A stretch of DNA of 64,000 nucleotides from Eledone cirrhosa (lineage: Eukaryota). A model generated the notes under the pieces. That model saw nothing but the letters and a program-made list of their open reading frames with translations. It was not told the origin of the DNA and did not search any database. The position numbers were made by a program, and so were the translations under genes. Below are positions 1,680-54,380 of the stretch, one piece after another. The stretch covers positions 20,274,001 to 20,338,000 of the forward strand of contig OZ024743.1 in assembly GCA_964016885.1 (NCBI GenBank), given 5' to 3'. Numbering within the stretch: the first letter of the stretch is position 1; each line of letters begins with the position of its first letter.

Positions 1680-1932
1680 AAGCAGAAGGGATATTCAATT
1701 TGTTGGTAATTCAACAAATATAAATGTTTATAACGGATTTAGAGCACTCAACAAATTTACTGGAGTATAATATACATTGATATTAAATAAATGGAAACTA
1801 TATTTATAAAACCATATTTATTCTATTATATATATTTCAAGGGTACCAACATTTTGGTACCCTTGAAATATATACAATAGAATAAATATGGTTTTATAAA
1901 TATAGTTTCCATTTATTTAATATCAATGTATA
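1680..1932 (-). mobile_element. Short PLE terminal relic with ~79-bp fold-back palindrome
   Basis: Arms 1771-1849 and 1854-1932 are reverse complements (one mismatch seen); carries an HHR 3' half (stem II-GAAA-TATATA-TA) followed by AATAAA; flanked by (TA)n; same terminus as 34960. Confidence 0.65.
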
Positions 1933-2044
1933 TATATATATATATATATATATATATATATATAAATATATATATATATATATATATATATATATATATA
2001 TATATATATATATATATATATATATATATATATATATATATATA

Positions 2045-4552
2045 TCATCATTATCATCATCATCATCATCAACGTTTAACGTCCGTGTTCCACGCTTGCA
2101 TGGGTTTGGACGGGGGTATTCCCACTTGAGGCAAGAGTGATTGTCTTGCTCGCATAGGACTGTCTGGCAGGTTTTCTACAGTTGGATGCCCTTCCTAACA
2201 CCAACCACATTTACAGTGTGGGTCTGGGAGGTTTTTACCATGTTGCCTACACGGCCACATTACAGCGTGGACTGTGTGTTTTTTGTCGTGACACCTACAC
2301 GATCTCATTTGTTTCGGCCTGGATGGCGTGGCACCGACATAACTTTACATAGAAGGGGGTGGTGTGGATGGGGTGGGGGTGGTGGGACGGGGGTGTATTT
2401 TGTTAGAGATGCCTACTGGCTGTAATAGGTTTTACTATATATTTAGGTAAGGCGGGTCTTCTCTGTTACTGAGTACCGCCAAAGGTCTCGGTCCAGTGAC
2501 ATTGTCTTGGAGAGGTGTAAGTGTGTGAGGTCGGAGTTTATCAGCTCGTCCCAGGTTTTTCTAGGTCTGCCTATTCCGTGGCTACTGTCTATCTTTATTG
2601 CCCTGCACTTTGTTATACTGCTATCAACTTTCATGCGCATCACGTGTCCATACCAACGTAGCCTTCTCTCGAGTAAACAACATCTGATCCCTCTTATTTC
2701 TAATTTTTTCCTTAGTTCGTTTATGCTTTGCCGTTCACGTATATTACTGTTACACATCCAGCAAAGCATGCAAGCTTCATTCCTCTCTAGTCTGCATATA
2801 TCCTCTGCACACAATGCCCAGGTCTCACTGCCATGCAACATTGCTGCTCGTATGCAGGCATCATACAACCTGCCTTTCATTTTTAGGGAGAACCCTTTAG
2901 CAGCAAAAGTGGTATAAGCTCTCTGAACTTTTTCCATCCAGTTCTGACTCTAGCTACTGTACTTTCTGAGCACCCTCCCCCACTGCTGATTTTGTCACCC
3001 AGGTAACGGAAGCTGTCCACTATTTCTATAGAACCCTCTGCGCAGTTGTAAGAGCTAGTATTTTGTGGGCACTTGCTGCTACTTATTGCACCAGAGCACC
3101 GGCCACATGTAAAATCTATGTTCTTAGTTAGCTTACCTGTGATCCCACTACATCTTTTATGCACCCATACTTTGCATTTGGGACATAAAATGGAGTTTCT
3201 ACCTACGCCTTTCCTACACACTGAGCATGGCCATTTCCCAGAAGGGACCGCCGCCTTATTTTCTTTCCTACAAACTAGAACTTTAGTCTTAGCCAGGTTA
3301 ATTTTAAATCCTTTTGATTCTAGGCCATGCTTCCATGTTTGGAATTTCTTCTCTAGCTCGGCCATTGATTCAGCTATGAGTGTCAGGTCATCTGCGTATA
3401 GGAGTTCCCATGGGCAGCCGGTCTTGAACTCCTCTGTTATAGCCTGAAGGGCAATAATAAATAGTAGGGGGCTGAGAACAGAGCCCTGATGGACGCCAAC
3501 TTTTACGCTAAACTCTTCACTATGTTCGTTGTTAATTCTAACCTTGCTAACTGTTTCTTTATACATGGCTTGTATCACTCTCACAAGCCATTCATCAACA
3601 CCTAGTTTTCTAAGAGCCCACCAGATAATGGAGCAGGGGACTCTGTCGAAGGCTCTCTCCAAGTCGACAAAAGCTAAGTAGAGGGGTTTACCTTTAGCTA
3701 GGTACTTCTCCTGTAGTTGTCGTACAATGAAAAGAGCGTCTGTGGTACTTTTGCCTGACGCAAACCCGAAATGCATTTCATCTAGGTCAATTCTCTCTCT
3801 GATTAGTTGCGCTATTACTTTTTCCGTGACCTTCATGACCTGGTCGATTAATTTAATGCCTCTATAGTTACTCCTATATAGGGCATCTCCTTTACCCTTA
3901 TAACAGTTAACGATGATGCTGCTATGCCAGTCCTTCGGAACAACCCCATTCTGTACGACTTGGTTAACTATGCGGGTGACCATGGTGTGTCCCACTGTGC
4001 CAGATGCCTTCAGCATCTCAGCGACTATTTCCGAAGGCCCAGCCGCCTTACCCGTCTTCATATCCTTGATTGCCTTACTTATTATACTCCCCTCGACTAA
4101 CACTGCTGGTCCCTCTATTGGGTCGATGTGGGGGAGACTGTCTTTCTCCCATTTATTCTCCTCATTTAGTAGCCTTTCATAGTGACACTTCCAAGCTACC
4201 TTCTTATCAGCGTCGGTGATGGCAAGTACACACTTCTCCCCGACAATATCACGGTTTTCCTTGACACATTGCCTAGCAATCCTGAACACCTCACGTTTTT
4301 GGTCCTCGCGTTGTAGAACATGCTTGAACTTTCTTTCCTCTGCTTCCCTTCTTGCGAAGTACACTTGTCTCCTAGCTTCCCTCCTGGCCACTTGATAGTC
4401 TTCTCTACTTCCCCCATCCCGCCATACTTTCCAAGCCTGCTTTTTGGCCTTAATTGACCCCTCCACCTTACTGTTCCACCACCATGTTACTCTCCTCCTG
4501 CCTACTGGCCTGCTCCAGCCACAGACTTCGTCTGTCGCCATCAGCAGGTTTG
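2045..4552 (-). mobile_element. RTE LINE subfamily A, 5'-truncated and frameshifted
   Basis: ORFs 2883-4628 and 2443-2937 give RT motifs (FVDLERAFD, GVHQGSVLSP, YADD) and the RTE C-terminus (RLRWYGHV, GRPRKTW); (GAT)n 3' tail; near-identical to the 3' part of 11907-15795. Confidence 0.95.
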
Positions 4553-4559
4553 TATATAT

Positions 4560-52569: not shown

Positions 52570-52772
52570 ACCACGAGGTAACGAAGGAACCTCTGCAAAG
52601 TCGCTCGACCTGCTAGACATAGCAGCCAAATTTCCTTCAAATTATACCTTTCTGTCTTAAAAAAACATTGGGTAATATACTCCTTGATATCCCTGAAAAG
52701 AGAGGATGATCATGGCCAGAGTGCCTTTGATTTCAGGTTTGATTAATGAACGCTGACTTCAAGATAAACAAC
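52570..52772 (+). repeat. Dispersed SINE-like repeat ending in (CAA)n
   Basis: CCTGCTAGA.ATAGCAGCCAAA...GTCTTAAAA...GCCTTTGAT...TAAACAAC; relatives near 6490, 50350, 51820, 62660(-), 63975(-). Confidence 0.55.
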
Positions 52773-54239
52773 GGCTGTAGAAACGCCAACATTTAAAAGC
52801 AAATGATAAAACAAATGTAATTCAACTAAAAAGGATACATGAAATGTGTGAAGATATCGGTGGGCAGAAAGAAAGAAAAAAAAAAATGAATGAATGAAGC
52901 TGATATGGTGATGATGGGTGCAGGTGGTTATTTAATAGGGACCGAAATACAGTGTTGGTGTTTTGTATTGAAGGGTGGTGGTGATGGTAGTAATGGTTGT
53001 ACAACAAAGTTCAACTGTGTAGTGATGGTGATGGTTTGTGGAGCGAAGCAGTTCAAGTGGGTGATGGTGGAATTTTCTATAGCTTTAAGGTTTATTTGTT
53101 TATTAAAATAATAAACAACAATGGCGATGCCCCAGCATGGCCTCAGCCTATCGGCTGGAACACGTAATAGACGTAAATAATTTGTTTGTTACTCTATGTG
53201 TAACTGTGGGTTAATAATCTATTGATTAATGAAACGGAAACTAAATAATATTTATTAATCAAAAGCATCGATGTAATTATCATTATGATTTCAGTAGCAA
53301 GTGTTGGAGAATAGGAAGCTACTGACTAAGCTCCGTGCGACTTGATTCTTCGATCCGGTTTCGACTCCTGTTGGAAGAGAACCATTTCTTTGAAGTAAAT
53401 GCATGACAGTCACAACTACACAATTCTCTTCCGTTAAAATGTGCGACTTTGTGCCACCTTGAAATAATTATTTCACTAACCTTTGTAATAAAAAAAAAGA
53501 ATGAAATAAAATAAAATAATTTACTTTCACTAGACCAATATTTGTAAGGAATGGGAACAGTTGAGTGGGTTGACATTAGTACCCGAGTGGTATTTAGTTT
53601 ATCGACCTTGTCGAAAATCAAAATCGATCTTGGCGTTAACTGAAGCCAACAGACACCTTACACATAAATGCTACAAATGCTGTTTCAGTCGACGTGAAGC
53701 TTCTGCATATAACAACAGGGAATATGATGTAAAGTTAATGACTTTTTCCAAAGGAAAAATAATCATCATCGAATGTTTCTTATAAGTAAAATAAATAATT
53801 GTTTCTACTTTAGGCACAAGGCCAGCAATCACCCAGTGCATTACTGGTACTTTATTTTATCGACCCCGTAAGGATGAAAGGCAAAGTCAACCTCGGTGGG
53901 ATAAGTAAAATAAATAATGTCTAACAGTTCCCAATGCCATTACTGGCAGAGAGGAAAAAACAAAACATACTTTGATTTTGAATTGAAACCGGGACGCATG
54001 CTCCGATTTGTACAGAGCTTACTGCTGCATAACAACGCACACCATACATTGTTTTGATCGACTACATGGCTAATTTTTGTAGGAGTAGAATATAGCCGAT
54101 CGAATCGTTTCTAATAATATCTTAGTGGCACTTAATTTATTTACACAGAAGTGATAACAAGCTCAGTCGACCGCTATGTCAGGACTTTTAAGAAAAAAAA
54201 GGTGTGTGTATATATATATATATATATATATATATATAT

Positions 54240-54380
54240 GAAAAAGTTTAACCCCGACGGCAGAGCTCAAGCCGTTTCGACGGGGTTAAACATTTTCCTA
54301 TTACCCACTCTACTACCCTAAGTATTGAGTACTCTGGTGCGTTATGGTCCATCTGGTTACTCACCACACTTCCTTCGTTA
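54240..54380 (+). mobile_element. PLE family A terminal relic with 5' inverted segment
   Basis: Sense arm starts GGGGTTAAAC and ends CCTTCGTT(AT)n; preceded by an inverted copy of the HHR 3' half. Confidence 0.72.

Follow-up and report, generated by a model that had tools for sequence, protein, structure and literature searches.

Relics of Penelope-like elements in Eledone cirrhosa end at a family-specific 5' position that does not follow their hammerhead ribozyme

The insertion unit described for Penelope-like elements (PLEs) comprises a pseudo-long terminal repeat (pLTR), an adjacent inverted and 5'-truncated copy and an optional tail (PMC8557442; PMC3846280). The formation of tandem and inverted PLE insertions is named as an open question in PMC8557442, and the standing proposal for such palindromes is self-priming of the cDNA (PMC3846280). 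In Poseidon of Anolis (PAc), two start sites of the reverse transcriptase (RT) bracket the tail, both strands of AT-rich targets are cut and extended, and ribozyme cleavage is dispensable in vitro (PMC11167929). Transcription of Drosophila virilis Penelope (PMC2377424) and of Chlamys-3 (PMC8557442) begins within the pLTR, 5' of both the tail and the open reading frame (ORF), and 3' pLTRs can also fire (PMC2377424; PMC8557442). In a rotifer pLTR, TATA and TCACT initiator-like motifs have been noted (PMC8557442; PMC3846280). Finally, non-LTR retrozymes and dispersed minimal hammerheads are pLTR-derived, hammerhead-bearing and very numerous, and opposite-strand hammerhead pairs 100-700 bp apart have been reported (10.64898/2026.07.22.740005; PMC4209133). 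Here, we analyse short PLE relics in a 64,000-nucleotide stretch of the 3.0-Gb genome of Eledone cirrhosa (contig OZ024743.1; C4:20274001-20338000), hereafter the window, together with their relatives elsewhere in the genome. A reading of the window from its letters only (the sequence-only reading) had proposed that such inserts break at their hammerhead ribozyme; we find that they end at a different, family-specific position.

The inserts are 3' (pLTR) relics of PLEs, as that reading had recognized, with hundreds to thousands of genomic copies in five families. Copies were split by a two-arm junction parser into the long arm, the inverted arm where present, and the junction between them, using family references assembled from longer copies; positions are given relative to the predicted ribozyme cut (0). 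Querying the genome with tails or arms yielded 92 to 4498 candidates per family, of which 40 were scored for each. Arm ends were counted per nucleotide at risk in copies that were tail-selected, bystanders in other loci or drawn from random stretches (990 kb at round coordinates). We dropped 7 of 133 family A parses, which were chained neighbouring insertions or spurious arms, and three double-anchored duplicates. The window copies and the A loci found with a 153-nt query or an upstream query were left out of the counts as biased. Arms of families B, C and D that reach the start of the reference were scored as lying beyond the pile described below, and the B and D counts are small, 20 further listed copies of these two families not being included.

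The breakpoints are strongly non-uniform, as the sequence-only reading had anticipated, and pile up at one position per family, which we call the 5' wall. In family A, 137 of 211 arm ends fall between -46 and -35 and nine lie beyond, giving a rate of 0.138 per nt as against 0.005-0.009 downstream; the pile is present in tail-selected (69/100), bystander (48/79) and random-stretch (20/32) samples. The walls of the other families are at -126..-115 in B (25/76 arm ends, 12 beyond), -120..-103 in C (19/69, 11 beyond), -126..-107 in D (13/42, 14 beyond) and -49..-41 in E, where 35 of the 41 arms reaching -41 stop (the query began at -43, and one duplicate row was removed). The C and D piles are centred near -116. 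Non-inverted copies also stop at the wall, in 12/35 cases for A, 4/28 for B and 5/16 for D. Its position with respect to the ribozyme varies: the wall falls within stem II in A, precedes the core by 70-80 nt in B, and marks the 5' edge of the ribozyme, shortly before the core, in D and E. An alignment artefact at the A/T-rich loop of family A was ruled out because the inverted arm or (TA)n directly abuts the wall. A splice acceptor was also considered and rejected: B has a pyrimidine tract followed by CAG, but its copies retain sequence on the 5' side of the AG, and an AG is lacking in D. A family-specific 5' positional rule, different from a ribozyme rule, is well supported. A wall of this kind, common to both arms, is not described in the available parts of PMC8557442 and PMC3846280, and in the literature covered, mostly main texts of open-access papers, we found no mapping of relic 5' ends to a family-specific start site.

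The sequence-only reading attributed the breakpoints to the hammerhead, whose fold or cut would stop RT, after which the cDNA would self-prime. In its favour, the A wall lies inside stem II, which holds 156 of the 211 A arm ends, 137 of them in the one 12-nt window. Moreover, three of the six A copies in the window break no more than 8 nt from the cut, compared with about 5 of 123 elsewhere, so the near-cut class is over-represented locally. However, the cut is not enriched in any family. Ends within 3 nt of it number 6/211 in A (rate ratio 0.73), 1/76 in B, 1/42 in D, 2/69 in C and 1/59 in E; pooled over these five families, there are 11 ends in 2668 nt at risk versus 16 in 3317 adjacent nt (p 0.85). 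Stem II is not enriched in B (3/76 ends) and is depleted in D (4/42, ratio 0.23, p 0.015), and even in A its G/C-rich strand shows no significant excess (ratio 1.5, p 0.23). The core is retained by 54/76 B and 26/42 D arm ends, and by only 5/211 in A; the B, D and E walls are located 5' of it. The stem II hot spot holds for family A, which supplied three of the seven copies cited for it, and fails for B, D and E. The ribozyme rule is not supported as the main cause of the breakpoints.

The geometry of the arms bears on self-priming itself. Each family has two 3' end points, sites 1 and 2, located 60-145 nt apart. The outer end of the inverted arm is at +20 in A (76/88 within 4 nt), +54 in D (10/13), +36 in E (13/24), +55 in C and +61 in B (10/24, A/T-rich arms parsing poorly). 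Among 30 long A copies chosen by their upstream sequence, 17 end at site 2 (15 by script and 2 by eye), 12 run on to site 1 and one ends elsewhere. Snap-back of a single cDNA predicts a short arm contained in the long arm and never extending 5' of it, yet in 49 of 137 pairs with their outer end at site 2 the short arm reaches more than 5 nt further 5'. As a cDNA cannot copy what it lacks, self-priming is excluded for such pairs. Little or no arm overlap is seen in 20 of the 137, and in 46 pairs at the A wall the short arm goes further 5' in 22, less far in 18 and equally far in 6. At most junctions, the microhomology amounts to 0-2 nt.

The variable segment after the cut is common to both arms in 43 of 51 A copies, as against 23% between copies, which indicates that the arms usually come from the same source; in three A copies, the arms differ by 4 or more in this segment. 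The stretch +5..+17 of family A (54288-54300 in the window, and equivalents) is hypervariable, with at least ten recurring haplotypes. Near-symmetric turns away from the wall occur in 21 of 176 inverted copies, some of them on native ribozyme hairpins with 6-18 nt of overlap, as in a B copy of the window. Snap-back or hairpin-guided annealing likely makes this minority. As the main route, self-priming at the ribozyme is largely refuted, and a general role for it appears quite unlikely, since it leaves both the fixed outer end and the pairs with a further-reaching short arm unexplained. The arm geometry thus argues against the proposal in the available part of PMC3846280, and in the same literature we found no use of arm geometry against self-priming. 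Nor is there evidence that the copies form a self-propagating class of hairpin mini-retroelements: the junctions are individual to each copy, with the exception of one microhomology junction in family E. This junction, from the wall to +39 with short microhomology, recurs in seven copies (44305-44312 in the window, and L172, L174, L175, L180, L181 and L192); the query favoured it, and it could be a propagated rearranged form.

The walls coincide with initiator-like motifs in A, B, C and E, and in A, D and E a TATA-like box precedes them by 30-32 nt, suggesting that they are likely transcription starts. The motifs were scored against standard TATA and initiator consensus sequences. Family A has TATTTAT at -30 and TTAGTC at the wall. 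In E, all four copies that extend far enough have TATTTA at -30, and three of these four have TTAGTT at the wall; the start-site idea had been set down before E upstream sequence was obtained, although the initiator-like bases had been glimpsed in one copy before the -30 box emerged. D has TATAAAA at -32, B has TCACT at its wall and C has CCAGA. Of the two elements of an RNA polymerase II core promoter, A and E have both, D the TATA-like box only, B the initiator only, and C the initiator with a weak TATA-like box. By comparison, a TATA-like box and an initiator occur jointly at about 1% of reference positions (25/2329). From these DNA relics, the wall is probably a transcription start inside the pLTR. 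A start inside the pLTR has precedents in published PLEs (PMC2377424; PMC8557442), with the differences that the starts proposed here are read from DNA relics, not RNA, and that the D. virilis promoter is described as TATA-less with a downstream element, unlike those of A, D and E. Of nine long D loci, one has an upstream pLTR starting at -79, one is a long tandem and none begins at the wall.

Alternatively, the wall might be an RT pause or drop-off point set by local sequence or by a bound protein, and not an RNA end. The A wall does coincide with the 3' base of an inner, A/U-rich hairpin in stem II, the A pile is spread over 12 nt, and half of the wall-reaching D arms pass the wall. However, the D, E and B walls are on the 5' side of the predicted folds, which RT would already have unwound, stronger stems give no pile, and promoter-like motifs stand at the right spacing in A, D and E. 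We regard a pause as rather doubtful.

Our preferred reading, to which we assign a probability of about 0.62, is that the inner breakpoints correspond to the pLTR transcription start, and that the arms are two separately target-primed cDNAs joined head to head. It builds on direct observations, namely the two 3' sites, the shared 5' wall, the head-to-head joints, the (TA)n flanks and the fact that either arm may run further. An element protein would cut (TA)n on both strands, and one cDNA would be primed at site 1 and the other at site 2 on RNA of the same source. Where these sites are close to the RNA 5' end, either in the 5' pLTR of a tandem or in a transcript started in any 3' pLTR, RT would run off that end after 60-320 nt. 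Repair would then connect the 3' ends of the two cDNAs through 0-2 nt of microhomology. An arm extending past the wall may have been primed in the 3' pLTR of a longer RNA, and the ribozyme would be carried along passively, its position near the start site being coincidental.

In LINE-1 twin priming, the second target strand primes internally, which generates an inverted 5' segment with little overlap. The relics differ from this in that their second site is fixed per family and that their arms usually overlap to a common 5' wall. The two 3' sites and the putative two-strand priming match PAc (PMC11167929), which belongs to a different clade; in its main text, that study deals with 3' ends only and leaves the inverted arm and 5' ends unexplained. 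The proposed model joins two published facts, two RT start sites and a promoter in the pLTR, and predicts exact starts, at -41 in A, -126 in B, -115 in C, -116 in D and -47 in E.

Several points weigh against this reading. The samples are top-similarity matches skewed to young copies, D is represented by only 29 copies, and the first E sample was biased by its query. The wall windows were set after all rows had been seen, and the split subsets (wall rate ratios 20.5, 14.2 and 20.6) are a replication and not a blind test. The +1 base was picked close to the peak, at most a few nt away from it. In A, the pile covers 12 nt, from -5 to +6 relative to the proposed +1, with 40 of its ends located 2-7 nt upstream of that base. 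Among the motifs, D has no YYANW initiator, B has no TATA-like box (its best candidate has two mismatches, a score matched by 62% of positions), that of C is weak, and one diverged A-type copy lacks the box. No clear cap-derived extra G was seen by eye at the junctions. The arm haplotypes and a breakpoint correlation (odds ratio 3.1, p 0.037, weak) also fit snap-back in part. Finally, a single RNA could yield two overlapping cDNAs only with strand displacement; otherwise two sister RNAs would be required.

The abundance of wall-ending copies could also be accounted for by non-autonomous families resembling short interspersed nuclear elements (SINEs), with masters that begin at the wall. Consistent with this idea, 137 of 146 wall-reaching A arms (94%) stop there, and A copies number about 20 per Mb in the random stretches (19-22 in 990 kb). 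Long copies, however, share variable haplotypes with short ones, the junctions are individual, and the -30 element is missing from copies that start at the wall, making such families an improbable explanation. SINE-like masters would be compatible with the transcription-start model in any case, because the start of the master would still be the wall. It is extremely unlikely that the palindromes are assembly artefacts or result from post-insertion deletion at their centres. On the one hand, no public-run contig spans a window junction, and young D arms are 100% identical. On the other hand, the arms differ by substitutions or by an 8-nt deletion in four of five window copies compared, non-palindromic copies stop at the same wall, and public-run contigs show other A fold-type joints, although these runs may not be independent of the assembly.

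We give even odds to the broader idea that PLEs routinely make two cDNAs per insertion from two fixed RNA sites, and that the bulk of their genomic mass consists of run-off products from near the promoter, with both cDNAs ending at the pLTR transcription start and fused head to head. If so, the promoter of any PLE family could be located in DNA sequence by the 5' wall of its relics. Self-priming would then not be needed to account for the inverted pLTR, for the tail or for the minimal hammerheads that occur by the thousands, alone or back to back, in animal genomes. The transcription-start model also implies that insertion boundaries are not set by the hammerhead, consistent with the in vitro data. 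The elements themselves are ordinary dead-end insertions.

As for the identity of the elements, family D has an intact 798-aa open frame between two pLTRs (locus L373), which contains a DD motif of RT type and a YIG motif. This protein has no significant match in Pfam or PDB; its Atlas neighbours carry GIY-YIG/RVT_1 in part of their members. A broken endonuclease remnant is found about 660 nt upstream of family A (Pfam GIY-YIG, E 0.049, below the cut-off), and of families A to G only D and A provide such ORF evidence. A CxC-x5-CP-x4-C linker is present in D, and A has a similar one; a Cys-rich linker before the endonuclease is a trait of the Neptune and Nematis clades, a link drawn in part in PMC8557442. 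At L373 and L375, an upstream copy ends at site 1 directly before the ORF, which makes it a pLTR by partial tandem. Inverted copies account for 88/123 parsed copies in A, 24/52 in B and 13/29 in D, with two 3' end sites. With an ORF carrying RT-type and YIG motifs in D, a partial-tandem pLTR and an inverted copy plus tail, the elements are endonuclease-positive (EN+) PLEs. They share the head-to-head copy, palindromic junction, one-arm tail, hammerhead and (TA)n with the EN+ units in the available parts of PMC8557442 and PMC3846280, and differ from them in that the tails are 60-145 nt long instead of 30-40 and that most copies are pLTR-only. Earlier work has described the inverted copy, the tail, the palindrome at the junction, the ribozyme and the preference for (TA)n (PMC8557442; PMC3846280; PMC4209133; 10.64898/2026.07.22.740005). 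A 5'-side (TA)n flank is present in 92/123 A copies and in about half to 60% of those of the other families. A 1040-codon open frame upstream of one long B copy (L385:4022-7141) is absent from the other long B loci compared.

By sequence and fold, the hammerheads of A, B, D, E and F are of type I, with a predicted cut. Core, GAAA, stems I-III and the NUH triplet come in the right order in these five families, and A folds into three stems by energy alone. The native core of A is not CUGANGA but UUGAAAA, a U3-A8 variant of a kind reported in PMC4209133. Rfam did not detect families A-E in five long copies; in the window, it returned one weak HH9 match (38561-38915, E 0.0077, below the gathering score). 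Matches to miRNAs were microsatellite noise. The family C reference has no core adjacent to stem I, so its ribozyme is unproven; its only core-like heptamer is 295 nt upstream. The stem II region spans about 55 nt in A, and C may have one of about 280 nt or no core. The D ribozyme (-102..-13; 11137-11206 in the window) has a stem II region of about 90 nt, a 3-bp stem I and a GUU triplet. Non-LTR retrozymes have tandem units with a complete hammerhead each, whereas the relics are not tandem arrays but dispersed, single or inverted copies; most A copies lack half of the ribozyme and thus cannot self-cleave.

In the window, the seven inserts singled out by the sequence-only reading do exist, lie in (TA)n and come from multi-copy repeat families. 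Four of their seven placements relative to the ribozyme hold. The B relic at 1679..1938 (minus strand), of the minority class, has a long arm from site 1 (+148) and a short inverted arm from site 2 (+61), and turns in the stem II loop at about 1850-1853, the palindrome centre having been assigned there for 1771-1932. The A relic at 9244..9440 (minus strand) illustrates the majority class, with both arms stopping at the wall (-42/-40; 9384-9388 in the window, initiator-like TTAGTC), a 3-nt insert at the junction and its outer end at site 2 (+20); its turn had been placed inside stem II (9325-9440). The A relic at 40095..40224 (minus strand) is a short palindrome turning at -8/-3, close to the cut as described for about 40198, and the long arm of the A relic at 54236..54380 (plus strand) begins at -1 with a 3-nt ambiguity, in agreement with a sense arm starting at the cut at about 54282; its short arm extends to -28 and its outer end is at site 2.

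Two placements were wrong, and one depends on an unproven ribozyme. The young D relic at 10924..11304 (minus strand), thought to stop at the base of stem II (11069-11304), has a long arm to -45 and a short arm to -88, both ends inside the stem II region with GAAA at -12, and 5 nt of microhomology; with the short arm extending beyond the long arm, snap-back of the latter could not have produced it. The E relic at 44240..44364 (plus strand) is not truncated in stem II at about 44300: its inverted arm, which starts near site 2, crosses the entire ribozyme and reaches the E wall (-47), and its long arm begins at +39, giving virtually no overlap, a twin-priming geometry. It carries a one-mismatch core at about 44295-44301, contrary to the claim that all these inserts lack the CUGANGA half. 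The C relic at 4794..4875 (minus strand), for which a stem II truncation at 4874 was claimed, is a single arm from site 2 to -23 that ends 11 nt 5' of GAAA, the 5' half of its ribozyme not being established.

Five relics of the window retain the core, the E relic and four that the sequence-only reading had passed over. Three of the latter are counter-examples to a ribozyme rule: the G relic at 10691..10862 (plus strand), which retains an entire, degenerate ribozyme; the long A copy at 31096..31855 (minus strand), which reads through the entire ribozyme as far as about -506 and is accompanied by another piece from upstream; and the F relic at 38561..38915 (plus strand), whose hammerhead is complete (core 38835-38841) and which extends about 270 nt 5' of that core. 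In the fourth, the B relic at 34960..35079 (minus strand), a short tail arm from +102 is joined to an opposite-strand arm that begins at the B wall (-116) and retains the core. Also passed over were a relic of a second A subfamily at 8853..8959 (plus strand), a short palindrome turning at about +2..+5, near the cut, and an A tail-only relic without inversion at 11782..11863 (plus strand), which starts at +17. A decayed small E tail fragment is found at 59747..59783 (plus strand).

Relics are often inserted in the (TA)n flanks of other relics, and in loci L261 (G000:C15:25000001-25010000) and L271, A, B and E relics are densely crowded into 10 kb. The flanks of L035, L058, L133 and L303 harbour another short, (TA)n-flanked and often palindromic family outside A-G. 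In the window, an inverted repeat with 153-nt arms (35082-35433) adjoins the B relic and a separate repeat (9452-9540) adjoins the (TA)n of the 9244 relic; both have matches in other loci. Lastly, inverted repeats of about 115 nt at 41845-41961 and 42822-42937, 860 nt apart and 88-92% identical, possibly delimit a non-autonomous DNA transposon.

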